Assembly: GCA_947085655.1 (NCBI GenBank)
Contig: CAMTXH010000019.1
Coordinates: 3,827-67,826 of the forward strand
Length of the DNA stretch: 64,000 nt
From: an uncultured Omnitrophica bacterium
Lineage (GTDB): Bacteria > Omnitrophota > Gorgyraeia > JACQQV01
Direction: 5' to 3'
Made by a program: the position numbers and the translations under genes. Positions 26,528 through 60,312 of this stretch are shown here, in pieces (positions within the stretch are counted from its first letter, which is position 1; every line of letters starts with the position of its first letter). Below the pieces are notes generated by a model. It did no database searches, was not told the DNA's origin, and worked only from the letters and a program-made list of their open reading frames with translations.

Positions 26528-26529
<2 letters not shown>

Positions 26530-26826: not shown

Positions 26827-26833
26827 CTTATTT

Positions 26834-42845: not shown

Positions 42846-42925
42846 TTGTTCCATCTCGGAACATGAACATCCCTTTTTTTGTGCAACATAACTTAAGACT
42901 TTTAAAAGAGATAAGGAGGATTAAA

Positions 42926-45900: not shown

Positions 45901-47236
45901 AAGAATTTTTGTCAGTCTCAAAGAAGAAAGACCTTTGGCCAGACAACTCCTCGGTGCTGTAAACCGCTTTAACATTAAGCGGATCTGGACTAGAAAGCCC
46001 GGCCATAAATGGGTCCGTTCCAAGCCGAAAGAGTCGATCAGTGATCTGCCGATCGCTTCTCTTTCCACCGAGCGGCTTTCCATCATCTCCGGCGGGGAAT
46101 ATCTTGGGAAGGACGATCCGGTTGCGCTCGCCCATATTGAGTTCATGGACATTGTCTTTGAATTCATGCGGGATCACTTCTACATGAACCAGGGAGATGA
46201 ACGGGGATCGCACTACATGATGCCGCTTGCCGAAGCGCATGAGGATGCGGTGGCGACGCTCCGGAGCCGTGCGGTCCAAACCGCCGAGCGGTATGTCATT
46301 ACGAGTGACGGGAAATATGCCGGCAGAGAGGATGTTTACAAAGAACCGGCCTATGAGACAGCGCGGAGACGTCAGGTGGAATACAACGAACTCATCTGGG
46401 CGGTTCAGGGTTCTGAATGGCCGCCGGTCGGCGTCGGACCTGCACAGATTGAGGCCTCCTATCCTGCTGCACGGCTCATGGAGGAACTTGAAGCGGAGGA
46501 TTCGGAGTACCGGATCGAGCGGACGCTCACCTTGGCGGAAAGTCATGCCGCTTCCAAGTGGGCCGATCTTTTCCCTGCGATCGGCCGTTCCGTGAGCCCG
46601 AAAGTGGCACGGATGGCGGCAGATGGAGGAAATAAAGTCATTTTGATTAACGCTGAGACCTTCATCGAAGGACCGGATGGGCTTTTGGCGATCCAGAAGT
46701 ATTTCAGGGATCTTGGATTCGAGACTCCGGAAGAGGCCTTGAAGAGCCCGGTGAAGATTTACATCAATGTTCCGAAAGACGTCAAACCGAGCGAAGGAAA
46801 CGAGATCGTTGACCGGCTTCTCCGGACGGCCAAGGAGAAAACAGACGGTGCCGTGACACTCACCCGGGATTGGTTTGCGGGTGTTGTCTCGGGTACATCT
46901 GCAGATGATGTGCAAGGGAAAATTTTGAATGTGGAGGCTGGCATCGATGTTGTAATCGGGCCTACCGAATGGGCACATGGCCTCCAAAGAATTACAGGGC
47001 CGACTCTCGTGACGGTTGCTTTGGACCCTTCGCCTGATCAGGAAGCCCGTTCCGGCGCAGCGGCGTTTCTGATGGCGATTGAGGCGCTTGCCAATAATAA
47101 GGTCATCGATGAAGCTCTTGCACAGAAACTCTCTGTTCAGATTGATCAGGGCGCCTTGAGCATCATCGCAAGCCCGGTAAGCCCAAAGATTGAAACGGAT
47201 CTCACGGCCTACCGCGAAGCGATGCGCAAGGTGTAA
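42926..47236 (+). CDS. giant secreted protein A (1436 aa) with embedded fructose-1,6-bisphosphate aldolase/phosphatase-like domain
   Basis: ATG 42926 preceded by AAGGAGGA SD. Signal-peptide-like MSRKFFLFLALPLIVSLSFPAVVYS. Residues encoded at about 45227-46500 carry FBPA/P-family motifs in order (IDTGGDIGHQG, WAGDDNQINMVHRHG, GRGQDL, SGNVQAMGPG, DKTGPGAFNIP, GEYLGKDDP, ERGSHYMMP). Confidence 0.8.
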   Translation: MSRKFFLFLALPLIVSLSFPAVVYSKPTTHLKTPSARDGGVHQELAWILGADVSPAQASQLAAGAKELVSTAFDENRAFVTVGASDKEIAKQVDAYARAYHARTGRRFSVAGTEVFTNFGNNVKEISGEIGKLARSWRERAGKGFGRDKRNEDGTPDYHEVNIKDALAERLARASSFIQETLASGEGTVYANTAKRLSEETRIVLVLDEEGIPTLLSVYANTAKRLSEETRIVLVLDEEGIPTLLSNGVEGTPEHQALVSYAGRHRYAGWKGGDTTTPNRARSIYLSLVQVEELMKRADKETLGSLLYHHDRDLQNGKHEDPSPAAAERVNSVLQEIFTAYREKYLAKVEAEHKTKLQRVTTTVVSLDVATWLGGATRIPDEVVAFAENELKNEMAAGTITAFVVKARGKDLDIQANHQKGSESPIIQKILTDLMVRTLVQAVSPSSETREEVHQTARSYVSYRPAEMTYTERGAEPILIAKAIDAGPGFFNKALWNIFSHPDLQSTTTIDAFAAPGFRYVLSSVEDLKAGKKNPRTLVFTTPKDRDLLQSFASNPDAWVITEVYTTVDTLTGGKIPTDEPIATVSYQVVENAKGEKSLLNPNAIIRMQSGSPAVGEATNAIFRPQISIGGPNGEYNVAVFPVSDEEARTAAYQPGMARVAAYGYQSSEEKPGSPIFGRIPEDPVTNKQIVYDQVPRSSAARLVREKSALLAKLMNDHGEFDPYVVASVAEARAEKAKEANLSRFEKLPGLAKEDDVMAASRNPLEGHFTVSLIKIDTGGDIGHQGVPTEYRVVTEASLAAAREASKGQLFSDAHFGWAGDDNQINMVHRHGVDNDTIHSFDIQVFWRQVWAATAAGHKWYGRGQDLVGEAIKKGDVEIRAGLNDEFIEALGKQLSGEKSKYFAKVKAAYETWKQKTGGQEVGKPYSGNVQAMGPGLSELVVKAGQQVGKLAMDKTGPGAFNIPFWWAANQALERGVYDDLIFEIWDTEKHERIFVSLKEERPLARQLLGAVNRFNIKRIWTRKPGHKWVRSKPKESISDLPIASLSTERLSIISGGEYLGKDDPVALAHIEFMDIVFEFMRDHFYMNQGDERGSHYMMPLAEAHEDAVATLRSRAVQTAERYVITSDGKYAGREDVYKEPAYETARRRQVEYNELIWAVQGSEWPPVGVGPAQIEASYPAARLMEELEAEDSEYRIERTLTLAESHAASKWADLFPAIGRSVSPKVARMAADGGNKVILINAETFIEGPDGLLAIQKYFRDLGFETPEEALKSPVKIYINVPKDVKPSEGNEIVDRLLRTAKEKTDGAVTLTRDWFAGVVSGTSADDVQGKILNVEAGIDVVIGPTEWAHGLQRITGPTLVTVALDPSPDQEARSGAAAFLMAIEALANNKVIDEALAQKLSVQIDQGALSIIASPVSPKIETDLTAYREAMRKV
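43490..43663 (+). repeat. perfect 87-bp tandem duplication inside giant gene A
   Basis: Two identical 87-nt units (43490-43576 and 43577-43663) encoding VYANTAKRLSEETRIVLVLDEEGIPTLLS twice. Confidence 0.85.
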
Positions 47237-48210
47237 TGATTACGCAATACAGCACGCAGTACACCTCCATGGTGATCAAGATGAGGGGACGGTTTCCCTG
47301 GCCTGCCGACCAGGGCAGGCTAAACCGTCCCCTCGTTTCTTTAGTGGTTTCCCTTCCTTTAATAGGGACTCTTGTCTTCCCCCCTTCTATCTATGCCGAT
47401 ATCCCCGCTCAATTACGGGCGCCGATGACCTCCAGAGATGAAGGCGTAGCCCAAGCCATTGCAAGAGACCTCTCACTCCTTTCAGGAAATCGGGCGGTAC
47501 AGGATGGCGGCAACCGGACGGAGCAGGAGGGTGACTTAGCGTCGGAGGCACTGGATGCCGAAACCCTTGGGAAGATGGTGATACGTGCCATTCCGGAGGT
47601 TGTCCCGCCGTTATCATCCGACATTCTTCAAACAACATTCCAGGGAACGATTGCCGTCTACGAAGAATCGCTCGACAACCTCACCATTGCCACCATGGTG
47701 GAGCGGTTTGCGCGTCAATTAAACAGTGCACGCTCTAAAATCGGATTCGTTCTGGTTTCCACATCAGGGAAATCCGAATCTGAGATTGCCGCGAAAGTCT
47801 ATCGGGATTCGAAGGGTTTGGTCAATCTGAGCGGTACTTTCCGGGCAACACTTGTGGAGGGCGAAGTCAACGCATTGAATCCTTTGTCGGTTGTGGCGGC
47901 ATTGGAAGAAAAAAGACTCCCGCCTCTTGTGGAACTCGTCGCACCTTTGGAAATCGTGGTCGCTTACCGAAGACCTGGCATCGAACTGTATGGATGGCTC
48001 GTATCCCGTAACCCGCAGGAAGGGGAGGCGGGCATTGCGAACGGCGCACCGGCCCTTCGGGAACTGGTCGAGCTTTTGGGGTTGGGGGAGAAGGAACGGG
48101 CGAGTCTCCTTCGGGATGGAGGCCGATCGTTCATGGTTAACATTCAGCGCTATGAAGAAGATTTCGAAGCGTTCGATTTCTCCTATCGTGAAGGCCGCAA
48201 AAGCGATTAG
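47236..48210 (+). CDS. signal-peptide protein B (324 aa) consisting of the module shared with the C-terminus of giant C
   Basis: TAATG overlap with the A stop. Hydrophobic segment LVSLVVSLPLIGTLVF. Residues from about 95 to the end align with the last 230 aa of ORF C (for example FDFSYREGRKSD versus LDRSYRENRGL). Confidence 0.75.
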   Translation: MITQYSTQYTSMVIKMRGRFPWPADQGRLNRPLVSLVVSLPLIGTLVFPPSIYADIPAQLRAPMTSRDEGVAQAIARDLSLLSGNRAVQDGGNRTEQEGDLASEALDAETLGKMVIRAIPEVVPPLSSDILQTTFQGTIAVYEESLDNLTIATMVERFARQLNSARSKIGFVLVSTSGKSESEIAAKVYRDSKGLVNLSGTFRATLVEGEVNALNPLSVVAALEEKRLPPLVELVAPLEIVVAYRRPGIELYGWLVSRNPQEGEAGIANGAPALRELVELLGLGEKERASLLRDGGRSFMVNIQRYEEDFEAFDFSYREGRKSD

Positions 48211-48688
48211 CAGACGAATAAGTTGAAGCAAAAGTTAGATTTTGTCCCTTGACAATCAAGGGATTAAATGATATCCTTAATGTAAAGAAATTGAAATTTT
48301 TGTGTATACATCTTGTTTATTTGTAAAAGGTTGTAACTTAACTGGAAATAGCATCTTTCAAAATTTGGTCTTTCTTTACTCAAGGTTTGTTCACTAGATA
48401 AACGCAAACCATTCGTGAGGATGGGACTGCAAAGCCTTGGACCCTGCACTAATTTTCGGGGAAAATTAGTGCTGGCAGCCGGGTTGCCTAAAGGAACAGC
48501 GGCCCGGTTTTTTTATTCCCTCGGCCTGAATGGCCTCGGGATCAATTTAGTCAGCAGACTTACGTTCGCTTTGCTCCGTAAGTCTGGACTTCATTGTTCG
48601 GCGTGGGGGCTCCGGCTTCCTTCTTCCCAAGGCAAGAGGCGGAGCAATTACAGGAGCCCTCACGAACCGATCCGGAGGTGAAGAAAAG
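48211..48688 (+). promoter_or_regulatory. long structured 5' leader/intergenic region upstream of giant gene C
   Basis: AT-rich at 48280-48400. Hairpin TCCCTTG-ACAAT-CAAGGGA (48245-48263) overlapping a TTGACA-17-TATCCT promoter-like pair. Perfect 10-bp stem CAGACTTACG/CGTAAGTCTG (48554-48585). Stem plus T7 run at about 48475-48512 (terminator-like). Confidence 0.45.
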
Positions 48689-51600
48689 ATGAAGAAATCC
48701 GGTTTTTGGTTCAAACTTACTGCCTGTCTTATTCTTCAGATTTTTCTGTTCTTCACAGTCAGTCCCATCCCTGCCTCTGCCTTACCCACGCCAACCCAAT
48801 CCCATTTAAGGTCCATTTCAACCAGAAGCTCCGATGGAGGGGTTCGACTTCTTCAACAGGAACTTTTGCGGCCGGCGGGTGTTCCAGCGCCAGACGCTCT
48901 GCAGCCCATTGACGTTTACATCGCTGCAACTTTCGATCACGCCACAGGGCCAACCTCTTTCGAGGGGCGTGTCCGTCGTTTGGTTTCGGCGGTGGCTCAA
49001 GGTGAGTACGAAGGAGTTGATCCGCAAACGCTCGTTCCTCTTTTTCTGAAGGAGTTAACACCGGATCAAGCGGATCTTCATGAATCGATCGGGGGAGAAT
49101 GGGAGCGTCTAAACGGCACTTGTCAGACGTGCGGTGTGAATTCCTTTTATGAGTTACCTTCGACGGGCAGGGTGTCTTCCCAAGACCTCCGCAGAGTTCC
49201 GAGGGAAGTTTTGGGAAGTCTTGTTGCGGCTGTTCATATCGCCCAATCCGGGCGTCTTTCCTTCCACCCCCGAACAAACGAAATCCTCTATTCCGCTTTT
49301 GATCTTGGTTTGGTCTACGGGATGTCTGTTCACCAACTTCCAAAAGCAGAAAAAGCGTTACGAAGTTTGGTTCCAAATGCAGAGCGGGGACTGATTGTCC
49401 ATCTTGCCGCTCTTGATCCGGAGGGTCGGGGGGGTCATTTCGCGGCGGTTAAAACAATCGGGGAAAACGAAGTCATTGTCTTGGATAAAGGGAGAGAAAT
49501 CACCCTCCCGCTTCCGGAATTTCTCAGGCAATGGTCCGGGTATTTCCTCACTTATTCTCAAACCTCCTCAGCGAAGGTTGTCCCGCAGGAAGAGGCAAAG
49601 GAAGTCATGGGATGCTGCGGGACCTACGGCGAGATTATCTCTAAGGGGGCATACCATCAGCAGCCGGATGTGGATATTGCGCAGTTAAGCAGCATTGCGG
49701 CGCTTATCGAGCAGCACGGCCTTCAGGCACTTGTGAAAAACAATCAGGAAAGACTCTTTTTTGCGGGAGAGGAGGATGTCCAAATTGACGCTGTGGGGCG
49801 GTCGGGAAGTATTTCCTTCATTGAATATACCGGAAGGGATGAAGAACCTGTCCAACGTCATCCCCACACCCTGAATGCCGACGAAATCAAAAAGGTTAAA
49901 GGTTATGTCCACCTTCGTGAGAAAGCAGCCGCTCAACTCGAGGAAGTGCATCGGCTGAACGAACAAGTCGAGAAAGCGAAGTCAAAATATGGAAAGGGCA
50001 AAGACAGCAATCAGTCCTGGGAGGAGTGGCGGAAAAACCGCCATCACGGTTGGAAGGAGTGGCAGAGAGGGGCCGGGGAAGCAAAAGAGGCCAAAAAGAA
50101 ATACCAGCAATATCGGAATGATTATTTGGAGGAGAGGGAAAAGGTATTGGGTCAATTTATCGCGAACATTTACCCTGGGCAGCGGACCCGGTTTCAAAAT
50201 TATCTTCTGGAGTCGTATTTAGGCGGCCGAGAACAAATACAGAAATTTTTCAGCCAATTTTACCATTTGAAGCGTATTGTAAATCTTGAATTCATCTTCA
50301 ACAATCCGTCCGTTCGCGCGGAAATCCGCTCTTTGGCGGACCGGCTCCGTGTCTTGATCGCGGAAGAAGAGAGGTTATACAAGAAGTTTGTCGAGGACGG
50401 GTTATTACACCAACAGGATCTGGAGGCTTACAAAGGACGGATGGCACTCCTCAAAGATATGGAATGGTTCCTCACTGAAGATGTCCTCCGGCACATCGAT
50501 GAGATCATGAGTTTGGGGGGCATCGAAGAACGTGATTTACCGGTCTCTTCGCACGCGTTTCAGGCCCTTCGTGCAGTGAATACGGCCCTTGTGGCGATTG
50601 ACAAGCGACTTGAAACACGGGGGCGGGATTCGCTGGGCGTTGCCATTTCTCTTAGCGTGCCTGATGTGAAAACTTACCATCGGCTGAGAGACGCCCTTCA
50701 TAATAACGGATTTCGGTCAGAGTATGAGAGACGGCGGGAACGGGGAACAATGAATTTGGACAATCTCGCAATCCGCATGCAACACAGCCATAAGCCCAAT
50801 GGGGACATCGATGCAGACAGACCAGTCACCATCACTTTTGTTTACAAGGTAGCCGAAGCGGTGGGGAAACTGGGGGACAATGCAAGGGCAATCCGGAAGT
50901 CTATTACCGAGGATGAAGTGTTTAAGCGGGTGATCCGGGCAGATCTTGAAAACATTGTGGTCACGGCCCAATCCCGTTGGGCCTCTGCCGGAGGAATCAA
51001 CATTCCGAATGCCCATCCTGTGGACAACCGGGGGATTTATCTCATCGATGGCAGACAAAGAGAACAGATATGGGAACTTTCGGCAGATCAAATCCCAAAG
51101 TATGGTAGAAATGGAACCCTTTTTGTGGTTCTAAACGGCGATATTGATAATTATAACAGCGAGCGGGAAGGAAAACCGAATCTCACAAAGGTCTATGAGG
51201 AAGACCAGCTCAATACCGTACCCCGTCATATTCATCCGGAGGCCAGTTCAGACACCAAAAGGATTCCGCTTCGGATCGAACATTATTTGGCGCGCGGCCA
51301 TGACCTGAAAGAAGCATTCCGCCTTGCGGTGAACGATTTCGGCGGCTCTTTTGCGATCCAGATGCAGAGTGACCTGGAGCCGGGAAAAATTTTTCTTGCG
51401 CAGCACGGAGAAGGGCAAGCGCTTTATGTCGGAATTTCGGAAGATGGGTTTCATTCCTCTTCCGAACAATACGGGTTTGTTGAGTCGACTCAGCGTTACG
51501 TCGAGATGCAGGCAGGGCAAATCATCATTTTGGACCAGGCAAGGAAACCGGGTGTTGAGCAAATCGAGGCGTATGACTTTGATGGAACGCCGATTAAATT

Positions 51601-54076
51601 TACCGATGCCAATCTTCAAACCACCTCTGTGACAAGCCGCGATATCAATATCCGCGGTTACAACCATTTCCTTGAGAAAGAAATCCACGAGGCCCCCCAG
51701 ATGTGGGAGGATACCATCAGCGGGAAGACGGGCATCGATGTGGATCAAAGCGGAGTTAAAACGCCGTGGGTATCCCTCTCCCCCTTTGACGAATTACCGG
51801 TGAGAATTCTTCAAAGACTCGCGGACCAAGAAAATCCTACCCGAAAAATCTATGTCACCGGTATGGGAACGGCGGATGCGGCAGGTTCGGTGGTAGCAGG
51901 GCAGATCCGGGATTATTTGAGACTCGTCGGTCACGATGAAATCGAGGTGGAAGATATTATTGCGACCGAGTTAAGCGGATTCAAGTTACGGGAAAACATG
52001 AGCGACGTATTGATCGTGGCAGTCAGTCAATCCGGAAAGACGACGGATACCAATACGGCGATCAGTCATGCCAAAAAGAGAGGGGCCGGGGTTCTTGCGA
52101 TTGTGAATACACGCGATTCGAAATTGACGACTTTTGCGGATGGGGTCCTTTATACCGGGACAGGCCGTGACATCGAAATCGCAGTGGCTTCCACCAAGGC
52201 CTATTATGCACAGGTCGGCGCAGGGGCCCTTTACGCGATGGCACTTGCCGAGGGTCTTCTCCAAATGGACAGAGAACGGATTCGGGAGATGCCGGGTAGC
52301 CGCGAACGGACGGCCCAGTGGAACGAACTGGCCAAACGAGAGAAGGAGTTACAGAGGGTGATGTTGGAGGACATCAAAGAAATGCATTTGATGCCGGCAA
52401 AGATAACAACTTTTCTAAACGCCGTTCAAACTCTGGAAGAGGCATACCAAAAGGCGAAAAGAAAAGGTGCAACAGGAGTCCGACGCCATCCTCTTGTGGC
52501 AGCTGCCCATAACTGGCCGCTTCGGAAACTGGAGTGGAAAGTTTTGGGAAGCGGGCCGAATTATCATTCTGCAAAAGAGGGACGGATCAAACTCTCCGAG
52601 TTAACGTACAGCAGCCTGCCGTTTGACCACGTCGAGAATTACAAGCATATTGATTTTTCCGCAGAACCATGGGTGATCGCAAACATTGCGAATGTCTCGG
52701 GGTGGGAGAATACCTTCCATTCCGACATCGAATCCGAAGTCACCAAGATGCTTTCGCACAATGCGGCCTTAACGCTTATTGTTGCGGAGGACGATGCCCG
52801 TTTTAACTCTCTTGAGCAGGAATTCCTGACGGTGGAAGGAAAAAGGGAAAAAGGCCCCATTGATATCATCCGTATTCCCAAAACCAGCGAACGCTTTGCA
52901 CCTGTCCTTTCGACATTGGCGATGCATCTTTTGGCTTATCATGTAGCGCTTGCCCTGAACGAAAGAGCGAATGCGGTAATGAAAGTTCATGACGAGATTT
53001 TATATCAGACAGCGAGACTGAGAAACCATTACGGAAAGAAACAGGCCTCGAGTGATAACATCAGCGGTCTTATTTTGAAAAACAAGACTTTCCGGAAAGT
53101 GGCCAGAGAAAGAATCGGCGAACTCTTCCCGCAATTTAGAGAGGGTATCTTCAACAAAGGATTCGGCTCGGATCGGACCTTTTCGACGATGATTTTGTTG
53201 ATGGCCGCCGCTGGACATATTTCACTGGAACAGACAAACCAATTTTTGGGGAAGGATTATACGCCCGACACGTTTCTGGAAGCGCTTCCGGACTTTTTGA
53301 TGCACCAGCGGATGCGTCTTACCCGGACGGTGGATTCGGTTCTTCACCAGGCGAAGTTCGTGACTGTTGGAACCAAGCGCCAGACGGGATCGGAGTCAGC
53401 GGCGGCTGGGAGAGACGGCGGCGTGAGGCAGACCGCAGCAGTACTGGAAAGCGCAATCCAAGGTCTTTCGCCAGAAGTTTCTCTGTCCCAGTCGGTCCTT
53501 CAGTCCACCGTTCAAGGGACCGTTATAGTTTATGACGATGCGCTGGATAATTTGTCTATTGCCAAAAAGGTTGAACAACTTGCAAGCCAATTGAGGAATG
53601 CCGGCTCATCCATAGGATTCAGTCTGATTTCCCGTTCGGGGAAGGGGGCTGCGGGGATTGCCGAAGAGGTCTATCGGCATTCCAACGGCCTGGTTGACCT
53701 CTGGGGTCTGTTTCAAACATCTCTCGCCGAGGGTGAGGTCAATGTGCTTGACCCCAGGGCAGTGGATACGGCGCTGCGGCAGAGAGGGCTGGTGCCTCTT
53801 GAGCTCGTTGCCCCGCGGGAGATCGTTGATCTTTACAAAGAAAACAAAATCCAACTCTATGCCTGGCTGGTCTCCGGGAATCCAAAAGAGGGTGAGCCGG
53901 GCGTAGTTTACGGTGCAGAAGCCCTTCACCAAATGGTTGAGATCTTTGGATGGAACCCTGCCGACACCGAAATCCTTCTGGTTGAAGGCGGTCTGGAATT
54001 TACAGCGACGTTAGAGCGCTTTGAAGGGGACATCGAAGCCCTGGACCGCTCCTATCGTGAAAATCGCGGGTTATAA
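48689..54076 (+). CDS. giant secreted protein C (1795 aa) with embedded GlmS-like amidotransferase+2xSIS unit and C-terminal B-like module
   Basis: GGAGGTG SD. Signal-peptide-like MKKSGFWFKLTACLILQIFLFFTVSPIPASA. The region encoded at about 50560-53000 parallels glucosamine-6-P synthase end to end (RGRDSLGVAI, QSRWASAGG..NAHP, VVLNGDIDNY, YVTGMGTADAAG, VSQSGKTTDT, AVASTKAYYAQ, LLAYHVALAL), but the position of the N-terminal catalytic Cys is internal and occupied by non-Cys residues. Confidence 0.8.
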   Translation: MKKSGFWFKLTACLILQIFLFFTVSPIPASALPTPTQSHLRSISTRSSDGGVRLLQQELLRPAGVPAPDALQPIDVYIAATFDHATGPTSFEGRVRRLVSAVAQGEYEGVDPQTLVPLFLKELTPDQADLHESIGGEWERLNGTCQTCGVNSFYELPSTGRVSSQDLRRVPREVLGSLVAAVHIAQSGRLSFHPRTNEILYSAFDLGLVYGMSVHQLPKAEKALRSLVPNAERGLIVHLAALDPEGRGGHFAAVKTIGENEVIVLDKGREITLPLPEFLRQWSGYFLTYSQTSSAKVVPQEEAKEVMGCCGTYGEIISKGAYHQQPDVDIAQLSSIAALIEQHGLQALVKNNQERLFFAGEEDVQIDAVGRSGSISFIEYTGRDEEPVQRHPHTLNADEIKKVKGYVHLREKAAAQLEEVHRLNEQVEKAKSKYGKGKDSNQSWEEWRKNRHHGWKEWQRGAGEAKEAKKKYQQYRNDYLEEREKVLGQFIANIYPGQRTRFQNYLLESYLGGREQIQKFFSQFYHLKRIVNLEFIFNNPSVRAEIRSLADRLRVLIAEEERLYKKFVEDGLLHQQDLEAYKGRMALLKDMEWFLTEDVLRHIDEIMSLGGIEERDLPVSSHAFQALRAVNTALVAIDKRLETRGRDSLGVAISLSVPDVKTYHRLRDALHNNGFRSEYERRRERGTMNLDNLAIRMQHSHKPNGDIDADRPVTITFVYKVAEAVGKLGDNARAIRKSITEDEVFKRVIRADLENIVVTAQSRWASAGGINIPNAHPVDNRGIYLIDGRQREQIWELSADQIPKYGRNGTLFVVLNGDIDNYNSEREGKPNLTKVYEEDQLNTVPRHIHPEASSDTKRIPLRIEHYLARGHDLKEAFRLAVNDFGGSFAIQMQSDLEPGKIFLAQHGEGQALYVGISEDGFHSSSEQYGFVESTQRYVEMQAGQIIILDQARKPGVEQIEAYDFDGTPIKFTDANLQTTSVTSRDINIRGYNHFLEKEIHEAPQMWEDTISGKTGIDVDQSGVKTPWVSLSPFDELPVRILQRLADQENPTRKIYVTGMGTADAAGSVVAGQIRDYLRLVGHDEIEVEDIIATELSGFKLRENMSDVLIVAVSQSGKTTDTNTAISHAKKRGAGVLAIVNTRDSKLTTFADGVLYTGTGRDIEIAVASTKAYYAQVGAGALYAMALAEGLLQMDRERIREMPGSRERTAQWNELAKREKELQRVMLEDIKEMHLMPAKITTFLNAVQTLEEAYQKAKRKGATGVRRHPLVAAAHNWPLRKLEWKVLGSGPNYHSAKEGRIKLSELTYSSLPFDHVENYKHIDFSAEPWVIANIANVSGWENTFHSDIESEVTKMLSHNAALTLIVAEDDARFNSLEQEFLTVEGKREKGPIDIIRIPKTSERFAPVLSTLAMHLLAYHVALALNERANAVMKVHDEILYQTARLRNHYGKKQASSDNISGLILKNKTFRKVARERIGELFPQFREGIFNKGFGSDRTFSTMILLMAAAGHISLEQTNQFLGKDYTPDTFLEALPDFLMHQRMRLTRTVDSVLHQAKFVTVGTKRQTGSESAAAGRDGGVRQTAAVLESAIQGLSPEVSLSQSVLQSTVQGTVIVYDDALDNLSIAKKVEQLASQLRNAGSSIGFSLISRSGKGAAGIAEEVYRHSNGLVDLWGLFQTSLAEGEVNVLDPRAVDTALRQRGLVPLELVAPREIVDLYKENKIQLYAWLVSGNPKEGEPGVVYGAEALHQMVEIFGWNPADTEILLVEGGLEFTATLERFEGDIEALDRSYRENRGL

Positions 54077-57000
54077 TGTTGATGAAAAAGAAAAGATGGC
54101 TTAGTTTTTCTGCCTGGGTGACTTTCGAGCTCTTCTTTTTTACCCAGATTGTTTCGGCAGGGAACATTGTTGTGCCCTCTCCGCGCCATTCCCACCTCCG
54201 CGCCCCGAGTTTGAAAGGGACTGCCCAGGACGGGAGCCGTCGTGATGTCGGCGTTAGTCAATTTCTTACGGAGCTCCGGGGTGTCAAAGACGGCGGCACA
54301 CAAAATCTTGAGAGTTTTCCGTCTCTTTTACGAGATTATCTGAAGAGCGTAGCGGGCGTGATCGAGGGTCCCGACTGGTTAAGACAGACGCATGCCCTCT
54401 TTACCTCTGTCTATCCCCGGACTTTTCTTGCGGACTTGGAAAAGATGAGACAGGTGCCGGAACCCACCGGCGGCACCGTGTATTCGCGGCTTGATACACC
54501 CCTTTATTACGACGCAGAGCGCGGATTTGTCGTCCTGGTGGCATCCTGGGAGCCGGGTCAATCCACCCATATCCATAATCACCTCACCGAAAATGAAGAG
54601 CCGGAGGAAGGGATCATCGGTGTGCTTGAGGGCGAGGCAGAGGTGGTCCATTTTAGACGGGAGGGGAACCGGATTATTGAAGCGGGCCGGTTCATTTTGA
54701 AGGAAGGGCAGGCCGCGATTGTGCGTCAGGAAGCGGGGCAAATCCATCGGGTCAGGAATGCAGGAAACACCCGCCTTGTCATGCTCGATACCTACCGTCC
54801 CCGGCTTACCCGGACCGATGTCTTCCTGCCGCTTGAGGATCATTCGGAAACCTCCCTTTTGGGAGGGAAAAAGCGTGAAGCGTATGTCGTCGAGCCGGTC
54901 CGAATTCCTGCAGGGAAACAGAATCTTTTACTTCCGAAACTTTTGGTTGAGGCGGGCTTCGCTGTTCCGCAGATTGATGAGTTTCTGCGCAGCCCGATCA
55001 CCGTCAAAGCAACCTTGCAGGCCTTAAATGAAGCGAAGGCGCTGATTGCGGGGAGGGATGGAGGGGATAAACGGCAGCCGGCCAAGGAATCCACCGTCGA
55101 AATCGCAGGGGCGACATTTTTGCATCTTTCGGCCGAAAGACCGGTTGAGACGGTGCTGATTCCGGAGCCGATTGATCCGGCGGTCATCCGCCTGATTCAG
55201 GAAAGGGACGATGTCTCTGCCTTTATCCTGACTCCCGGGTCTGAAGAGGTTCGGACCCCCGAGGGATGGAAGGTTTTCTCGCAAGACCAGCTCTTAGAGA
55301 CCGTGCGCCAAACCAATCCTACCGCAATCATCGGCTATACCAATCTTCTCTATAATGCCCAATTGATGGATCTGGCCCCCCGCTTGGAAGGGATTTATCT
55401 TTTCTCGACGGGCCGTGAAAATGTGAGCCATCTGGAAGCGCGCCGGCGCGGAATCTTCGCCACGTTTGTCCCGGGGCCTTTAACGGAGATGGTGACCGAG
55501 CGGAATCACACATTTGGCCTGAATTTTGTCTTTGATTATTTAGGGAGCGTTCTCTATCAATCCCGTCCCGGTTGGATGACGGCCGAGGAGGTTTTGTCTT
55601 CTACGGTCAAAGAGAATCCGGAATCGGTTGCGCAGTGGATATGGGGGGAGCTTCTGCGAAGAAGTCAGCGGCTTGATCGGCAGGTTGACCATGTGAAACA
55701 AGGAAAATTCAGGCGCACAACCGGGGTCAGTGAAAACGCAACGGTTTATTCCGAACAATTGGCTCACAATCCGGAAATCGGAATAGAGACCACCCTCGGT
55801 CTTATCGGCCTTGGGGAAGTCGGCAAACGTCTTGCCGAGATTGCAAAGGTCTTCGAACTCAAAGAAGTCCGTTACCATGTGCCTCCTAAAGAACGGGATA
55901 AAAAATTAGAAAAAGAGCTTGGGTTGGTTTATGTAACATCTGTCAAGGACATTTTAACATCAAACTATGTGATCCGTGTCCCGGGCGCACCCATCCATTT
56001 AACCTCGGTAACCGATTTTAGGCAGGAGATTGTGGATCCTGAAAGAATATGGACCGATCCGGACAAGGCGCAGAATCTCCTGAAGCAGTCTCTTTTTGGA
56101 AGGAGAGCCCACATTGCAGGTCTGGGGCAGATCGGAAGAGAAACGGCCAGACGAGCCATTGCTCTCGGGATGGATGTGGATGCCATCGAGATTCGACCGG
56201 ATCTTGAGGCGATTGAAGCGCTGAATCAATTCCAGAGTAAGTTTGCCGAGCGCCACGGACGACCTAAAAGGCCAATCCGGTTGGTGAAGGATAAAGAAGC
56301 CTTCTTTAAAGAAGCAAACCCGGGAGACCTCTTCTTTTATCAGTTTAATTATACTCCTGAAGTCCATCATTGGGTCGATGCAGAGGCCCTGGCACTCCTC
56401 GGCGACACGCCGGTCATTCATATGAACACTGCCCGGGGGAAATTGGTGGATACAAAGGTAATGGAGGAATATCTCGATACCCATCCCCATTCAAAGTATG
56501 GAACAGACGTTTTGGAAAATGAGACCGGAGAAACAGAAAAAGGTCTCGCAGAGCGGCCTAATGTCGTGGTCACTCCTCATTCGGCAAGTGCCGATCCCCG
56601 GGTTCGCGCCTATGTTCAGAAAGTGGCGGTCGTTGATAACTTCTTCGCTTTCTTGGATGGGAAGATACCGGCCAACCCGATGCCCGAGGTCCCGGTTCAT
56701 GAAGTGGTGGCCCGGCGGATGTTTCGGGAGGCGGTCAAAAGCGCCGACGCGTATGAGGCGGTCAGGCGGCATGTTGCTTACGATCCTTCTTCCCAGACCC
56801 TCACCGTTCAGGGGCGCCCCTATGATCTCGCCGGTATTCAAAATATCTATGTTGTGGGATACGGCAAGGCCTCGGGGGAGATGGCCGAGGCGCTTACGGA
56901 AATTTTGGGCGAGCGGATTACATCCGGCGTTATCACTGTGGCCGGGCATGAGCAGAAGAAGCGGTTTAACGGGAAGATTAAACCGATTACTGTTTATGCC

Positions 57001-60000
57001 GGCGATCATCCGATCCCCGGGCTCGAAGGACCGAAGGGGACAGAGGAGATGATCGCCCTTGTGCATCAAGCGGAACCACAGGATATGGTCATCTCGCTCA
57101 TTTCCGGCGGCGGGAGCGCCATCGGTGCCCACCCCGTCTTTAAAATGTCCCTTAAGGACTTGCAGACACTCTATCAGCTTCTTGAAAGCACACCCATCCC
57201 GATTCATGAAAAGAACGTTATCCGTAAACATCTTGATGCACGCGCTGACCTCTTGCGGGTCTCAAGAAATGCAAAACATTTTGTCAGTCTCATCATTTCC
57301 GATGTCCCCGGGGATGATCCCCGCGACATCGCTTCCGGTTATACCGTCGGAGACACCAGCACATTTCGCGATGTGAAGGAACTTCTTCAGAAATACCACC
57401 TCTGGGGGAGAATTCCGGCATCCATCCGGAATTTCATCGAGCAAAATGTCATTAGTGATCCTGTGTTTGAACAGGTTCACCCCGAAGATCCCCTTTTCAA
57501 GGGCGGCCGAGTTCATACCGCACTTTTGGTCGGGAACCGTCCGGCCCTTGAACGGGCGGCGGAAGTGGCGCGCGCACTGGGATATGAGACAAAAATTATT
57601 GAAGAGCCACTTTCCCGCACGGTGGAGGCAGAGGGCGTACAGATCGTGGAGGAGATCATCGAGGCCTCCGATTCCCCGAGGGAAAAACCCCTTGCGATCC
57701 TCTGGGGCGGCGAGACGGTGGTTGATCTTCCCGAAAGCCCGGGGCGCGGCGGGAGGAATAGTCACCTGGCCATGACCATCGCAAAAGACCTTTTTGACCT
57801 GAATCTCCCGGAAGTGACCTTCCTTGCGGCAAGCACAGATGGCAAGGACGGCTCTTGGGACGGGACCGGGGCGGTGGTGACAGGCGAGACCGTGGCACGC
57901 GCGCAACAGGCGCGCATGGAGCTCTCCGACTTCTTAAGGCGCTTTGATTCCGGGACCTTTGCCGAAAAGACGGGGATTGATGTGACAACCGGACCCACCG
58001 GAACGAATGTGATGGATGTTGCCATCGCGTTAATTCCTGCCGGGATGCCAGAAGAGGCGCGCGAGGGCGGGAACCGAGAGGCGATTCGCAGCGCAGGAAG
58101 AGCGCTTGCGGGATTATTGCGTTCAAAACTCATCAATCTGCGGGATGCCGAGAAGATGCCGGCTGAACTCCGGCGTGCACTCAGTCAAGATGTCCACGAA
58201 AGACTCCGGCAACAATTGCATCCCACGCTTCTCAGGGAAGTCGGAGATGTCGAAAAGCCCGTCCTGGAAAGGACCCTTCGGGATGCCGCAGTTTTGGCTT
58301 CCTTGTCTCCCGAAGATCCCAAGGGCATCAAGCAGTCGGCTTTTCTGGCAGGGCGTATTTTAGAAGATATTAATCAATATGCCTCTTCCTCTGCGTCGTT
58401 ACGGGCCTCTTGGCATGCGCCGCGGGATCCATCCGGAAAGGTGATGGTGGATCCCCGATATGAGGAATACCGGAAGGCGATCTGGAAAAGCCCTTCCCAC
58501 TGGAATTTTAAGGGGATTCGGGGTCTCCTTGAGGCGCTTGAAGAGGAAACGCTGAGGGAAACGCTGCGACAATTCGCCGCAAGCGGTGAGACATTTGTTG
58601 TGGCAGAGATTGGGACGGGGAACGGCCCTTTGACGCAAGAACTCCTTGAGATGTTCAAGCGGTTCAGCGTCAAAAATTACAAAATTCTTGCGACCGATGT
58701 GAATGCGAGTTGGCTCGCTTCCGCTTATGAACGGTATGGAGACAAAAAAAGTCCCCATTATGATCCTTCCGTGGAATTTTATCTGGTCCGTTCCGAGGAT
58801 GAACAGGGGCGGTCCTTCAGGGATTTTGAGAAACTCTCCACAACGCTCGGCGGGCAGAAAGTCCATTTGGTGATCGGATCGCATGCGATCCATCTCATCG
58901 GGCAGTTTGACCAATTCGCAGCGGGAGTCCGCGAAACACTTCTCCCGGGCGGCTTTGCCGCTTTCCAGAGTTTGAACGTGGAATATCCTGGCCGGGTTTC
59001 GGCGGATGGAACGGGTCCTTTCCTCATCGATGATACCGCAAACCGTGTCCATGACCTTGCCGTTGAACTGATTCGAAACGACGCAAGATACGCCGGTTAC
59101 CGGGAACGGGTTTCAGAGGAAAACATCGCAAAAGCACTCCAGACTCGTCGGGCGGTTTTCCCACCGGTCCGGGACCAAAGCGAATATCTGACGCATCTTA
59201 AAGATCATGGCTTTGGTATTTTGGTCCCTTATGCCTCTCCTTCTTATCCGGCAGAGTATATCCATGTTCTCTATGAGGACTGGGGAGAATTTTTGAAACT
59301 TGAACTTTTGCAGAACGGTATCCTTCCCGAATTGCACAAAACCCCTGTTCAATCCGAGGTCATCGCCGAGGCGGCGGAACGGCTCTTTGAGTGGATGCGC
59401 CGGGAAAACGAAGAAAAGAGAAATCCTTTCACGAGCAAGGAGAAGAAGGGTTCCTTCATCGTCGGCTCCACCATCATCATTGCAAAATTGGGGAGGGAAG
59501 AAAGGTCGCCAGTCGAGCCGGAACGCTTTGCCCGGGATGGGGGGAGGAGAGGGCTCGAAATAGAGCGGCGCGAGGCGCTGGTTGCCTATCTTGATGGGAT
59601 TCTCGATGCAACTCCCACACAGGGCCCCGGCGTGATCTCATTGGATGTGAAGGTCGAACAATTAGCATCGCAGTTTGCGCTTCCCCCCGAAACCGTGAAG
59701 CGATTCCTTGGGGATTCGGATGTCTTCCAGATCTTACCAGATGGACAGATTACTTTTGATCGAAGCATCGGGGAGGATTCCGAAGCCCTTCGCTTTTTCG
59801 CAATGACGGCCAAAAAATGGATCGCCTCCGCCCGAGACGGCGGGTTCAAGGTTGGCGATGTCAAGACAGTAGAAGTGGAAGAAACGATTTCGGCATTACC
59901 GGAGGAGATTGCAAACGAGACGGATCAGCGTTATCAAGATGGGCGGCTGGTCGGAAGAGAAGGATTTGGCAATATTATTGATGCGATTGAGGACCGTGTA

Positions 60001-60255
60001 TGGACCATCGAAGAACTGCTTGAAAGACTCGACCGGAAGGCGGAGGAAAAACTCCGCCCAGAACTTTCTCCGCTTGCCAAAGCGCTATTGAGGCAGCTTT
60101 TGATTCAAGAGGGGACGGCTCGGGATAGCAGCGTCCTTCTTGAGTTGGCTAAAGCCATCCGAACGCTCGATCTTCCCTCTCTCACTGCGGGCCCCCTCCA
60201 CAAGGACCTCGAATCCGCAAAGCAGATTGTGAAAGAGGTCTTGGTCGGACTGTAA
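54076..60255 (+). CDS. giant secreted protein D (2059 aa): cupin + D-2-hydroxyacid dehydrogenase + MOFRL glycerate kinase + class I SAM-methyltransferase-like domains
   Basis: TAATG overlap with the C stop. Signal-like MLMKKKRWLSFSAWVTFELFFFTQIVSA. Cupin motifs (PGQSTHIHNH...GQIHRVRNAGN), Rossmann motifs GLIGLGEVGKRLA and IAGLGQIGRETARR plus VVTPHSAS, MOFRL motifs (VVGYGKASGEMA, ISLISGGGSA, LWGGETVVDLPESPGRGGRNSHLAM, AASTDGKDG), and MTase motif I VVAEIGTGNGPLT. Confidence 0.8.
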   Translation: MLMKKKRWLSFSAWVTFELFFFTQIVSAGNIVVPSPRHSHLRAPSLKGTAQDGSRRDVGVSQFLTELRGVKDGGTQNLESFPSLLRDYLKSVAGVIEGPDWLRQTHALFTSVYPRTFLADLEKMRQVPEPTGGTVYSRLDTPLYYDAERGFVVLVASWEPGQSTHIHNHLTENEEPEEGIIGVLEGEAEVVHFRREGNRIIEAGRFILKEGQAAIVRQEAGQIHRVRNAGNTRLVMLDTYRPRLTRTDVFLPLEDHSETSLLGGKKREAYVVEPVRIPAGKQNLLLPKLLVEAGFAVPQIDEFLRSPITVKATLQALNEAKALIAGRDGGDKRQPAKESTVEIAGATFLHLSAERPVETVLIPEPIDPAVIRLIQERDDVSAFILTPGSEEVRTPEGWKVFSQDQLLETVRQTNPTAIIGYTNLLYNAQLMDLAPRLEGIYLFSTGRENVSHLEARRRGIFATFVPGPLTEMVTERNHTFGLNFVFDYLGSVLYQSRPGWMTAEEVLSSTVKENPESVAQWIWGELLRRSQRLDRQVDHVKQGKFRRTTGVSENATVYSEQLAHNPEIGIETTLGLIGLGEVGKRLAEIAKVFELKEVRYHVPPKERDKKLEKELGLVYVTSVKDILTSNYVIRVPGAPIHLTSVTDFRQEIVDPERIWTDPDKAQNLLKQSLFGRRAHIAGLGQIGRETARRAIALGMDVDAIEIRPDLEAIEALNQFQSKFAERHGRPKRPIRLVKDKEAFFKEANPGDLFFYQFNYTPEVHHWVDAEALALLGDTPVIHMNTARGKLVDTKVMEEYLDTHPHSKYGTDVLENETGETEKGLAERPNVVVTPHSASADPRVRAYVQKVAVVDNFFAFLDGKIPANPMPEVPVHEVVARRMFREAVKSADAYEAVRRHVAYDPSSQTLTVQGRPYDLAGIQNIYVVGYGKASGEMAEALTEILGERITSGVITVAGHEQKKRFNGKIKPITVYAGDHPIPGLEGPKGTEEMIALVHQAEPQDMVISLISGGGSAIGAHPVFKMSLKDLQTLYQLLESTPIPIHEKNVIRKHLDARADLLRVSRNAKHFVSLIISDVPGDDPRDIASGYTVGDTSTFRDVKELLQKYHLWGRIPASIRNFIEQNVISDPVFEQVHPEDPLFKGGRVHTALLVGNRPALERAAEVARALGYETKIIEEPLSRTVEAEGVQIVEEIIEASDSPREKPLAILWGGETVVDLPESPGRGGRNSHLAMTIAKDLFDLNLPEVTFLAASTDGKDGSWDGTGAVVTGETVARAQQARMELSDFLRRFDSGTFAEKTGIDVTTGPTGTNVMDVAIALIPAGMPEEAREGGNREAIRSAGRALAGLLRSKLINLRDAEKMPAELRRALSQDVHERLRQQLHPTLLREVGDVEKPVLERTLRDAAVLASLSPEDPKGIKQSAFLAGRILEDINQYASSSASLRASWHAPRDPSGKVMVDPRYEEYRKAIWKSPSHWNFKGIRGLLEALEEETLRETLRQFAASGETFVVAEIGTGNGPLTQELLEMFKRFSVKNYKILATDVNASWLASAYERYGDKKSPHYDPSVEFYLVRSEDEQGRSFRDFEKLSTTLGGQKVHLVIGSHAIHLIGQFDQFAAGVRETLLPGGFAAFQSLNVEYPGRVSADGTGPFLIDDTANRVHDLAVELIRNDARYAGYRERVSEENIAKALQTRRAVFPPVRDQSEYLTHLKDHGFGILVPYASPSYPAEYIHVLYEDWGEFLKLELLQNGILPELHKTPVQSEVIAEAAERLFEWMRRENEEKRNPFTSKEKKGSFIVGSTIIIAKLGREERSPVEPERFARDGGRRGLEIERREALVAYLDGILDATPTQGPGVISLDVKVEQLASQFALPPETVKRFLGDSDVFQILPDGQITFDRSIGEDSEALRFFAMTAKKWIASARDGGFKVGDVKTVEVEETISALPEEIANETDQRYQDGRLVGREGFGNIIDAIEDRVWTIEELLERLDRKAEEKLRPELSPLAKALLRQLLIQEGTARDSSVLLELAKAIRTLDLPSLTAGPLHKDLESAKQIVKEVLVGL

Positions 60256-60284
60256 TCAGAACCAACATTCTGAATCCAATTTAA

Positions 60285-60312
60285 AAGCGCGCTTGAACGG
60301 TGCGCTTTTTTG
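60285..60312 (+). terminator. intrinsic terminator after the giant-protein cluster
   Basis: AAGCGC-GCTTGAACGGT-GCGCTT stem followed by TTTTTT. Confidence 0.65.

Follow-up and report, generated by a model that had tools for sequence, protein, structure and literature searches.

The stretch of DNA analyzed here (the window) covers 64,000 nucleotides of contig CAMTXH010000019.1 (positions 3,827 to 67,826, forward strand) from assembly GCA_947085655.1 of an uncultured Omnitrophica bacterium. It carries gene D (54076-60255, + strand), an open reading frame (ORF) with an ATG start and no internal stop that encodes a protein of 2059 aa, in which a first-pass annotation had recognized four enzyme domains strung together behind a signal peptide. 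The ATG of D overlaps by 1 nt the stop codon of gene C (48689-54076, + strand, 1795 aa), itself preceded by genes A and B (42836-48210, + strand). The present analysis indicates that D is a single protein from a small family of leader-bearing proteins, whose units are delimited by a short spacer, Asp-Gly-Gly (DGG), that looks like a cutting site.

D is one giant protein, as first proposed, and not a set of frameshifted genes. The same 6180-nt ORF is found, with no codon difference, in the contig of an NCBI metagenome-assembled genome (MAG; GCA_964374045.1) and in Logan assemblies of ERR3478686; since 0-3 bases in 17-20 kb separate these contigs from the window, they come from the same population and prove only that different assemblers reproduce the ORF. 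Furthermore, D has an orthologue, L075_D (locus L075, 8488-18482, + strand; at least 3331 aa, its frame running off the end of the locus), which aligns colinearly to D residues 3-1825 with 44% identity and carries cupin, dehydrogenase, kinase and methyltransferase in that order. HMMER was also run exhaustively with D residues 1-1200; combined with inspection of the contigs carrying the matches, this revealed protein P0002, 47% identical to D across D residues 327-1199, and P0003 (36% identity), in which the dehydrogenase-kinase junction is kept too. No alternative-frame ORF with domain matches was found. Overall, searches with hidden Markov models (HMMs), comparison with PDB entries and a structure model of the dehydrogenase recovered the four enzyme domains in the announced order behind a signal-peptide-like N-terminus, and neither of the two findings that the first-pass annotation had named as fatal, a lack of domain matches or an artefactual fusion, was encountered.

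By inspection, residues 1-28 of D (54076-54159) have the n-, h- and c-region features of a Sec signal peptide (MLMKKKR, a hydrophobic core and a VSA↓G site). They are followed by a pro-region (residues 29-74, 54160-54297) that contains the conserved motif SHLRAPSL, a repeat of the form QDGS and, as the first of the spacers, KDGG (DGG at 54289-54297). The same inspection found a basic n-region, an h-region of 15-20 residues and small residues at -3/-1 in 10/10 leaders of the family, the putative signal peptidase I sites being VSA↓G, ASA↓L, AYA↓L, SYA↓I and others; the h-regions hold an unusual conserved Glu or Gln (AELFFFT, LQLFIL). All pro-regions include (S)HLR-x-P and, up to about residue 95, between one and three copies of the repeat [R/K/S]-D-G-[G/S/A]. 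Beyond the N-termini of A-D, no hydrophobic segment reaches the threshold used, D's own N-terminal segment lying just under it.

The first enzyme unit of D (residues 75-327, 54298-55056) is a predicted thiol-dioxygenase cupin of the cysteine dioxygenase (CDO) type, with a three-histidine site (His167/His169/His224). Cupin_2 (PF07883) matches residues 158-240 with 20.5-21.5 bits, under its gathering cut-off (GA) of 27.2, and CDO_I (PF05995) passes its GA of 23 only in the orthologue (25.4 bits in L075_D, 12.8 bits in D). All PDB sequence matches (26/26) are cysteine or 3-mercaptopropionate dioxygenases (best 6xb9, E 8e-6), and the iron site is in register with that of 6xb9 (PGQSTHIHNH and GQIHRVRN in D, PGQTTPVHDH and GDIHRVFN in 6xb9). 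The unit is 46-49% identical to the N-terminal units of two other family members, P0006 and P0008, and a scan of the genome collection retrieved nothing but CDO-like cupins of Proteobacteria, all free-standing. On these comparisons the unit is of the thiol-dioxygenase type and not a generic cupin, which refines the initial call of a cupin with metal motifs at residues ~150-240.

The second unit (residues 331-875, 55066-56700) resembles a long-form D-2-hydroxyacid dehydrogenase of the glyoxylate/hydroxypyruvate reductase kind. The paired arrangement expected of this class is present, both HMMs passing their GA: the catalytic 2-Hacid_dh (PF00389) matches residues 362-527 with 26 bits (GA 24.6; 59-61 bits in P0002 and L075_D) and the NAD-binding 2-Hacid_dh_C (PF02826) matches two stretches with 104 bits (GA 25.1). 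A substrate-binding half is followed by the first Rossmann beta-alpha-beta in two successive copies (about residues 572 and 673, with the GxGxxG motifs GLGEVG at about 577 and GLGQIG at about 681) and then by the catalytic segment. Arg787 (NTARG), Glu816 (DVLENE) and His835 (TPH) align to 2cuk and 5aov, and the His, Glu and Asp are invariant across an 11-row alignment of copies of the module (A5). The AlphaFold2 (AF2) model of the whole 549-residue module, with an 11-row alignment as input, has a predicted local distance difference test score (pLDDT) of 90.6 and a predicted template modelling score (pTM) of 0.90, with a two-domain fold matching GRHPR-type structures. Its top Foldseek matches are all glyoxylate/hydroxypyruvate or phosphite dehydrogenases (E about 1e-18, template modelling (TM) score to target 0.68-0.82), and it superposes on complete 2cuk, 5aov, 6bii, 2dbq and 9m0t, about 200 residues being left as insertions. 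For the NCBIfam glyoxylate reductase equivalog, D scores 104 bits against a cut-off of 455. The dehydrogenase identity given in the first pass therefore holds, but not its span, which had been placed at residues 560-840.

Joined to the dehydrogenase without any spacer lies a glycerate-kinase-like domain of the MOFRL family (residues 876-1329, 56701-58062), with DUF4147 (PF13660, residues 879-1122, 193 bits, GA 23) and MOFRL (PF05161, residues 1207-1314, 99 bits, GA 28.3). Its closest PDB relatives are 1x3l (PH0495; E 2.8e-62 over D residues 878-1321) and 2b8n (TM1585). As judged from these matches, it is a MOFRL family member by domain and not by equivalog, the NCBIfam equivalog scores being 138.8 bits against 550 and 120.6 bits against 670. 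The kinase half of the earlier label (glycerate kinase/hydroxypyruvate-reductase-like) thus stands, whereas the reductase half falls, the MOFRL enzymes being glycerate 2-kinases. The suggested comparison with the TtuD/GckA family gave a mixed result: of the 45 residues with a conservation of at least 95% among 38 free-standing MOFRL kinases, the domain keeps 41, but a universal loop is replaced. Since no member of the family has a spacer between dehydrogenase and kinase, the junction being kept in D, P0002, P0003 and L075_D, the two probably form a true bifunctional unit. The proposed coupling of hydroxypyruvate reductase and glycerate kinase gains from this spacerless conserved junction; a simple role in feeding glycolysis alongside A and C is not supported as it stands. 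That plain reading is incomplete because the orthologous loci carry other modules (phosphoenolpyruvate carboxykinase (PEPCK), phosphoglycerate kinase (PGK) and a phosphoglycerate mutase (PGAM)-like module in P0002, pyruvate-phosphate dikinase (PPDK) in L075_D). D does not fit ordinary cytoplasmic central metabolism either, since its NAD(P)H-, ATP- and S-adenosylmethionine (SAM)-dependent domains stand behind a Sec leader.

The next unit (residues 1333-1820, 58072-59535) is a predicted class I SAM methyltransferase, in which motif I (VAEIGTGNG) and post-I (ILATD) are recognizable by eye. Ten methyltransferase families match residues 1490-1630, all weakly; Methyltransf_12 reaches 24-27 bits over residues 1511-1627, under its GA of 30. 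The region first annotated as a methyltransferase is part of one discrete unit of about 480 aa, 52% identical over 483 aa to a unit of P0008 (52-53% when L075_D is included). PDB profile and NCBIfam searches gave no substrate-class assignment. After it come a small unit (residues 1824-1920, 59545-59835), with a weak helix-turn-helix-like match (HTH_Crp_2, E 0.029) and no homologue found, and a C-terminal module ending in EVLVGL (residues 1924-2059 and stop codon, 59845-60255), which belongs to the type 1 defined below (alignment A2) but is shortened, the central ~190-aa core of its relatives being missing. The ~450 C-terminal residues that had been left unassigned are thus accounted for by the rest of the methyltransferase unit (to residue 1820), a unit of roughly 100 aa and a shortened family C-terminal module. 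With 41/45 kinase residues, the Arg, Glu and His of the dehydrogenase and the three histidines of the cupin kept, the enzymes of D look active.

The units are separated by spacers of a recurrent kind (for example LIAGRDGGDKRQP and RFARDGGRRGLE). In D these are, after the first one in the pro-region, AGR-DGG-DK (residues 328-330, 55057-55065), where homologue alignments begin; EAR-EGG-NR (residues 1330-1332, 58063-58071), a variant whose counterparts are SKDGGSRE in L075_D and AADGGGK in P0002; FAR-DGG-RR (residues 1821-1823, 59536-59544), which is ARDGGVR in L075_D; and SAR-DGG-FK (residues 1921-1923, 59836-59844), matched by the ADDGGFK that precedes the C-terminal module of P0008. Further copies lie in A and B (43037-43045, 46622-46630 and 47503-47511, + strand) and inside C (RDGG, 53414-53422, + strand). 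In total, A-D contain 10 DGG in 5644 aa, compared to 1.7 expected and to two in the 11,966 aa of the 25 other genes of the window, and none of 2000 shuffles reaches 10. Across the family, the consensus is [A/S/G]-[R/A/S]-D-G-G-x-[K/R]. Among eight family proteins, 28 of 29 DGG are located outside Pfam domain envelopes, whereas 12.8 would be expected inside (Poisson-binomial P = 6.8e-7); the lone one inside a domain is the canonical motif of triosephosphate isomerase (TIM), DGGLIGGASL, which has no flanking consensus. Homologue alignments start and stop at the spacers, the fold of the dehydrogenase model begins 8 residues after the GG, and every member, including the 324-aa B, has one copy 20-45 residues past its signal peptide. 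At 12 sites the codons of the motif vary freely (GAT/GAC for Asp; GGA/GGC/GGG for Gly; AGA/CGG/AGG/CGA for the flanking Arg), so selection acts on the peptide and not on DNA; a recombination or cassette site at the DNA level was rejected on this ground.

From its sequence, D belongs to a small leader-bearing family made of A, B, C, D, P0002, P0006, P0008 and genes of the loci L073 to L075. They follow one plan: a signal peptide, a pro-region (HLR-x-P...[R/S]DGGV), one or several enzyme units with a spacer after each, and a C-terminal module. D is not simply an isolated fusion standing beside A and C: A-D are linked by the common leader and pro-region and by the DGG spacer and not by a pathway theme alone. 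The modules differ widely between members: P0002 carries cupin, dehydrogenase, kinase, PEPCK(ATP), PGK and His_Phos_1 (PGAM-like) modules before its C-terminal module, and P0008 carries cupin, PALP, two Glu/Leu-type dehydrogenases, methyltransferase, His_Phos_1, two small units, PEPCK(GTP) and TIM before its own. The methyltransferase of P0008 therefore has another position and other neighbours than in D. Likewise, PGK is internal in P0002 but forms in L073 a separate leader-bearing protein of 782 aa that contains only leader, PGK and C-terminal module, and L074_g1 ends with an aromatic ammonia-lyase. The TIM, PGK and PEPCK modules of these relatives score 220-380 bits with intact motifs, including those of TIM in P0008. 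Past its methyltransferase, L075_D holds a complete PPDK (PPDK_N, PEP-utilizers, PEP-utilizers_C). Gene order is also conserved in part: C precedes D in L075, and P0002 lies, like D, directly upstream of icd-mdh-sucC-sucD. A leaderless GTP-type PEPCK is encoded elsewhere in the window (9057-10838, - strand), 43% identical to the PEPCK module of P0008; this lineage thus encodes at least one of the module enzyme types in an ordinary cytoplasmic form too.

Each polypeptide of the family, long or short, has exactly one leader and one C-terminal module. Type 1 (...EVLVGL) is found in D, P0002, P0008, the L073 PGK protein, L074_g1 and L075_C (the L075 orthologue of C), and type 2 (...YRENRG[LV]) in B, C, L073_g1 and L075_up. 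The body of B is 52% identical to the C-terminal module of C, which begins right after the internal RDGG of C. A single common C-terminal module was considered and rejected, types 1 and 2 and the C-terminus of A having no profile-profile similarity; searches of the C-terminal modules against PDB profiles were uninformative. In the search for further members, a metagenome scan with alignment A3 added L075 only, scans of viral contigs were empty, and word-indexed protein searches returned D itself, P0006 and nothing further.

Gene C encodes a leader, a pro-region with SDGGV, a candidate C39-like (double-glycine, papain-fold) peptidase domain (49106-49567, + strand), a GCCG motif with a GlmS-like region, SIS domains and a type-2 module. 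Peptidase_C39 (PF03412) is the top and essentially the only Pfam match of residues ~140-293 (E 3e-4), and it is also the top match in L075_C. Although the two orthologues are only 29% identical to each other, both have Cys148 (CQTCG), His250 (GGHF), Asp266 (VLDKG) and the motif FL[RK]QW[ST]G (alignment A4). Cutting after Gly-Gly is characteristic of C39 peptidases, deubiquitinases and viral papain-like proteases, which makes this domain a natural candidate for acting on the spacers. Shortly past it, by about 25 residues, stands a conserved G-C-C-G (49610-49621, + strand; residues 308-311 in C, 313-316 in L075_C), whose second Cys lines up, in L075_C, with position 1 of the GlmS model. In Ntn amidotransferases the Cys at position 1 is the N-terminal nucleophile and requires a free N-terminus; this internal Ntn-type Cys therefore gives a separate hint that processing occurs. 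In both proteins, insertions several hundred residues long, among them a coiled-coil-like stretch, interrupt the GlmS-like glutaminase region. Another candidate protease close to these genes is an M48-family (HtpX-like) membrane metallopeptidase with an EF-hand-like insertion (41008-42045, + strand), encoded directly 5' of gene A, past two tRNA genes.

The 478-nt gap between B and C contains a c-di-GMP-I riboswitch aptamer (48393-48491, + strand; RF01051, 49.5 bits, GA 35), whose covariance match spans the full-length model (positions 1-87). It is preceded by a sigma-70-like promoter recognized by consensus (TTGACA-17-TATCCT with a TG extension, 48249-48277, + strand) and followed by a terminator-like expression platform (48477-48516, + strand; minimum free energy z-score -3.4). 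The 5' arm of the platform (GCCGGGUUGCC) doubles as the 3' P2 strand of the aptamer; the two structures are consequently mutually exclusive, which suggests that c-di-GMP turns C-D on, the riboswitch being an inferred ON switch. Directly 3' of D and before icd, there is a terminator-like hairpin with a T-run (60283-60309, + strand), and the same hairpin follows P0002 in L074. C and D thus form a two-gene operon separate from icd-mdh-sucCD; a single tricarboxylic acid (TCA) cycle/glycerate operon was rejected because this hairpin and a promoter-like site intervene. The riboswitch of C-D is one of three c-di-GMP-I riboswitches within about 18 kb, the others being a tandem pair (L001, 21405-21605 and 21769-21906, about 1.4-1.9 kb past the end of the window) upstream of a response-regulator/PAS-GAF histidine-kinase cluster. 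The organism appears to use such riboswitches heavily.

Upstream of this operon, A and B both have D-like leaders and pro-regions; beyond these, A (1466 aa) holds two FBPase_3 (FBP aldolase/phosphatase) domains, and B (324 aa) just a type-2 C-terminal module. The true start of A is probably Met31, which opens a classical signal peptide; a promoter-like site (42817-42845) overlaps the annotated ATG. Within A (42836-47236, + strand), the N-terminal FBPase_3 copy is the weaker one (residues 389-704, 112 bits), the stronger spanning about residues 860-1230. A also contains an exact 87-nt tandem duplication (43488-43663, + strand; 2.0 copies, 100% identity) that encodes VYANTAKRLSEETRIVLVLDEEGIPTLLS twice; either an in-frame duplication took place very recently or the assembly is at fault here.

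At some distance from these genes, the region of about 11000-27000 of the window corresponds to a replication origin region, with parB-parA-mnmG-yidC (- strand) followed by dnaA-dnaN-gyrB-gyrA (+ strand) and a minimum of cumulative GC skew at about 14-16 kb, which shows that the locus is chromosomal and not carried by a phage or a plasmid. The GyrB ORF (20405-24043, + strand, 1212 aa) is interrupted, immediately ahead of its Toprim domain, by an intein (Intein_splicing, residues 450-820).

The dehydrogenase module of ~540 aa also recurs in giant proteins of other lineages, each with its own recurrent motif: RSEAR in P0042 (11 observed compared to 0.01 expected), [QE]SP[AS]G in P0034 (10 compared to 0.11) and D[AK]AM in P0010 (five compared to 0.03), where the motif immediately flanks the dehydrogenase module on both sides. 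These three cases suggest that lineage-specific punctuation is general among such giants. Extending the DGG/leader system itself to all giants with the dehydrogenase module was rejected: P0042 starts with SecA, P0034 has PfkB, and the motifs differ. Four other proteins of 1700-2400 aa (P0004, P0005, P0007 and P0009) have, by eye, an AceK-like (isocitrate-dehydrogenase kinase/phosphatase) region and two tandem long-form dehydrogenase modules, in which the catalytic Arg is replaced.

We give an even chance to the following interpretation, in which D is an exported pro-protein, controlled by a riboswitch and cut at its DGG spacers by the C39-type domain of C. C and D would be co-transcribed from the promoter under the c-di-GMP-I riboswitch, the bound ligand probably preventing termination, and both proteins would be exported by Sec. 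The papain-like Cys148/His250/Asp266 domain at the N-terminus of C would then cut the spacers after Gly-Gly. D would release (i) a thiol-dioxygenase-like cupin of about 28 kDa, (ii) a bifunctional hydroxypyruvate/glyoxylate-reductase-glycerate-kinase unit of about 110 kDa, converting hydroxypyruvate to glycerate and then to 2-phosphoglycerate, and (iii) a methyltransferase of about 54 kDa and two small C-terminal pieces. Of this picture, the ORF, the domains with their catalytic residues, the enrichment of the motif and its place at module boundaries, the conservation at the protein level, the shuffling of modules, the leader, the operon and the riboswitch are established; export, cleavage, the acting protease, the enzyme activities and the site where the products act are inferred. 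Among the mechanisms considered, cutting by the C39-like domain of C has the best support, although it is unproven.

Several observations weigh against this interpretation. The C39 assignment lies under the Pfam GA of 22 in both orthologues (21.0 bits in C, 21.1 bits in L075_C). A profile built from the two sequences finds PCAT1-family C39 chains on the His/Asp segment at a non-significant E of 0.17-1, no PCAT1 alignment reaches the Cys segment, and the single-sequence AF2 model of the domain (pLDDT 34.7) is unusable. The flanks of the spacers are unlike the canonical double-glycine leader (LSxxELxxIxGG), and PCAT C39 domains act in the cytoplasm. The universal K-G-G loop that follows RKHL in MOFRL kinases is R-A-D in D (residues 1056-1058) and R-T-T in P0002, the first FBPase_3 copy of A looks degenerate, C does not have a clean GlmS N-terminus, and the family is known from about five loci only. 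Finally, exported enzymes would have no obvious supply of NAD(P)H, ATP and SAM, cofactors that one does not expect to meet outside the cytoplasm. This supply is the chief difficulty of any export model; the chief difficulty of the models without export is that 10/10 leaders look like canonical signal peptidase I substrates.

The main competing explanation keeps export but not cleavage: D would be a tethered multi-enzyme protein that stays uncut, its DGG being conserved flexible hinges or sites of docking or recognition by a partner such as a chaperone, a secretion factor or a scaffold, while the C-terminal module would anchor or sort the whole chain. The presence of one leader and one C-terminal module per chain fits such whole-chain sorting or anchoring, and Gly-Gly is common as a hinge. 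The sub-threshold C39 score can be read in the same way, since protease-inactive C39-like domains exist in some ABC transporters, and multi-enzyme long proteins of Omnitrophota have been reported without evidence of cleavage. However, a hinge needs neither a conserved Asp nor an [A/S][R/A/S] prefix nor a basic residue at +2, and the copy that every member, even B, carries shortly after its signal peptide would be unexplained. Furthermore, enzymes of differing oligomeric states (TIM, PGK, PEPCK, FBP aldolase/phosphatase) would presumably be hard to assemble when chained, and the internal Ntn-type Cys of the C orthologues requires a free N-terminus. We consider the uncut protein possible but on the unlikely side.

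Alternatively, the N-terminal segment could be an uncleaved membrane anchor holding the enzymes on the cytoplasmic face as a membrane-tethered C3-acid metabolon. This would remove the cofactor problem, as all four catalytic domains require cytoplasmic cofactors, and the largely intact catalytic residues are in keeping with it, as are the conserved Glu/Gln of the h-regions, which set these apart from a generic signal peptide. Moreover, almost half of the long proteins covered by a 2026 preprint (10.64898/2026.06.07.730766) are interpreted there as anchored in the membrane, with their domains in the cytoplasm. However, Lys and Arg lie N-terminal of the hydrophobic segment, which by the positive-inside rule places the C-terminal bulk outside, all ten leaders have the small -3/-1 residues typical of signal peptidase I sites, and the hydrophobic segments that reach the threshold in A-D are N-terminal only. 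An anchored cytoplasmic protein is therefore a distinctly unlikely account of D.

A further candidate, which we regard as very improbable, takes the enzyme-like units to be largely dead as catalysts and recruited, as folded domains, into a protein of the surface, adhesive or matrix kind that high c-di-GMP would induce. Riboswitches of this class typically govern surface and matrix genes, and the losses listed above (the KGG loop in D and P0002, the first FBPase_3 copy of A, the catalytic Arg of the AceK-associated dehydrogenases) point in that direction. However, the conserved kinase residues, dehydrogenase triad and iron site of D, together with the high-scoring TIM, PGK and PEPCK modules of its relatives, contradict general decay, and keeping adjacent steps together (reductase and kinase; PEPCK, PGK and PGAM-like) suggests selection on chemistry. 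As for an assembly or frameshift artefact uniting separate genes, which the metagenomic origin of the DNA might favor, it is effectively refuted and was rejected: the ORF is identical across assemblies, the four-domain order and the dehydrogenase-kinase junction are conserved in relatives, alternative frames hold no domain-matching ORF, and the module model is confident across predicted boundaries.

The interpretation of D as a cut, exported pro-protein could be extended, although we find this extension doubtful. The C3 enzymes of glycolysis and gluconeogenesis (glycerate kinase, hydroxypyruvate reductase, PEPCK, PPDK, PGK, PGAM-like, TIM, FBP aldolase/phosphatase) would be made as Sec-exported polyproteins and cut at [A/S][R/A/S]DGG↓x[K/R] by a papain-like protease from the same c-di-GMP-controlled operon, an equivalent in bacteria of the way viral polyproteins are processed. 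Once released, the enzymes would act outside the cytoplasm, in an enlarged periplasm, an organelle or an attached prey or host cell, and the giants of other lineages would use their own motifs alike (RSEAR, [QE]SP[AS]G, DAAM).

The D family is a compact and tractable version of the signal-peptide-bearing C39 multi-enzyme giants, with boundaries marked by a short Gly-Gly motif that is statistically clear-cut and conserved at the protein level, a candidate protease in the same operon and an identifiable regulatory input, c-di-GMP. If DGG is the cutting site, it would provide long-sought cleavage points for giant bacterial proteins and, should the motifs of the other lineages serve alike, a general map of cleavage for such proteins, so far missing. 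If the enzymes are exported and active, they would challenge the assumption that ATP- and NAD-dependent enzymes of central carbon metabolism work only in the bacterial cytoplasm. Even when read conservatively, D is an instance of a conserved bifunctional unit of hydroxypyruvate reductase and glycerate kinase, and its 2-hydroxyacid dehydrogenase is a long-form module (about 540 aa) that is widespread and turns up again in giants of several lineages.

The folds and catalytic residues of this bifunctional unit are the same as those of free-standing GRHPR-type dehydrogenases (2cuk, 5aov, 6bii, 2dbq) and MOFRL glycerate 2-kinases (1x3l, 2b8n), and the pair would catalyze the conversion of hydroxypyruvate to D-glycerate and 2-phosphoglycerate as in serine/glycerate routes. 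In contrast to the free-standing enzymes, D fuses them in a leader-bearing chain, with a dehydrogenase about 200 residues longer and a kinase whose KGG loop is replaced. A fusion of glycolytic enzymes is known from Thermotoga (PGK-TIM). In stramenopiles, a TPI-GAPDH fusion carries a mitochondrial targeting peptide that relocates the C3 part of glycolysis (PMC3527533). Unlike the D family, these two-enzyme fusions have no spacers, protease or C-terminal modules, and the mitochondrion of stramenopiles is a compartment with its own cofactor pools. Broad searches of the literature for polyproteins of metabolic enzymes in bacteria turned up nothing of relevance.

MARTX toxins and viral polyproteins (coronavirus PLpro, LxGG↓) offer an analogy only: a chain of several units, an embedded or co-encoded cysteine protease and short recurrent sites. 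However, Pfam scans of A-D detected no RTX repeats, C80 CPD domain or type I secretion signal as in MARTX, and, unlike viral polyproteins, the proteins of this family are encoded in a window that holds dnaA-dnaN-gyrBA and have central-carbon enzymes, not toxins or replicase subunits, as cargo. The C39 domains of PCAT1 and ComA are closer to the putative protease of C, as they have a papain-like Cys/His/Asp site, the known substrates are cut right after Gly-Gly, and the His/Asp segment of C aligns to PCAT1-family chains, if weakly. They differ from it in that the domain of C is not fused to an ABC transporter and sits behind a Sec signal peptide, and in that several internal sites in large proteins are proposed for it instead of one short leader, with flanks other than LSxxELxxIxGG.

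The nearest parallel is with the giant proteins of Omnitrophota, in which a C39 domain lies near the N-terminus beside a signal peptide and domains of pyruvate-phosphate dikinase and SecA are frequent; pilZ genes come after them, and they have been proposed to be cleaved into smaller products (West-Roberts et al., bioRxiv 10.1101/2023.11.21.568195). A survey of 916 long Omnitrophota proteins likewise distinguishes a class of "multi-enzyme metabolic clusters", finds a signal peptide only in 8.6% and ranks the C39 and SecA architectures as the largest clusters (10.64898/2026.06.07.730766); both preprints (10.1101/2023.11.21.568195, 10.64898/2026.06.07.730766) raise the question of whether such proteins are cut, and according to one of them the cleavage points are not known, which blocks the analysis. 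Like these giants ("Archaeovorins", "multi-enzyme metabolic clusters"), the D family combines a signal peptide, a nearby C39 domain (here C39-like and in C) and unrelated metabolic Pfam domains tiled along the chain. Two domains common to the giants, pyruvate-phosphate dikinase and SecA, occur respectively in L075_D and in P0042, which has the dehydrogenase module of D, and the link to c-di-GMP is made by pilZ genes in the giants and by a riboswitch at the D locus. In contrast, the giants reach 10-147 kaa, whereas the D family covers 0.3-4 kaa (2059 aa for D) and has no internal transmembrane helices; its defined leader and pro-region, DGG boundary spacers and defined C-terminal modules are reported in neither preprint, nor does either mention cupin, 2-hydroxyacid dehydrogenase or glycerate kinase domains. 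Furthermore, the window has icd-mdh-sucCD, whereas the Omnitrophota described in the preprints have a fragmentary TCA cycle. Overall, the kind of architecture is already known, but the compact, DGG-punctuated and riboswitch-controlled D family is new and supplies a concrete hypothesis for where such proteins may be cleaved.

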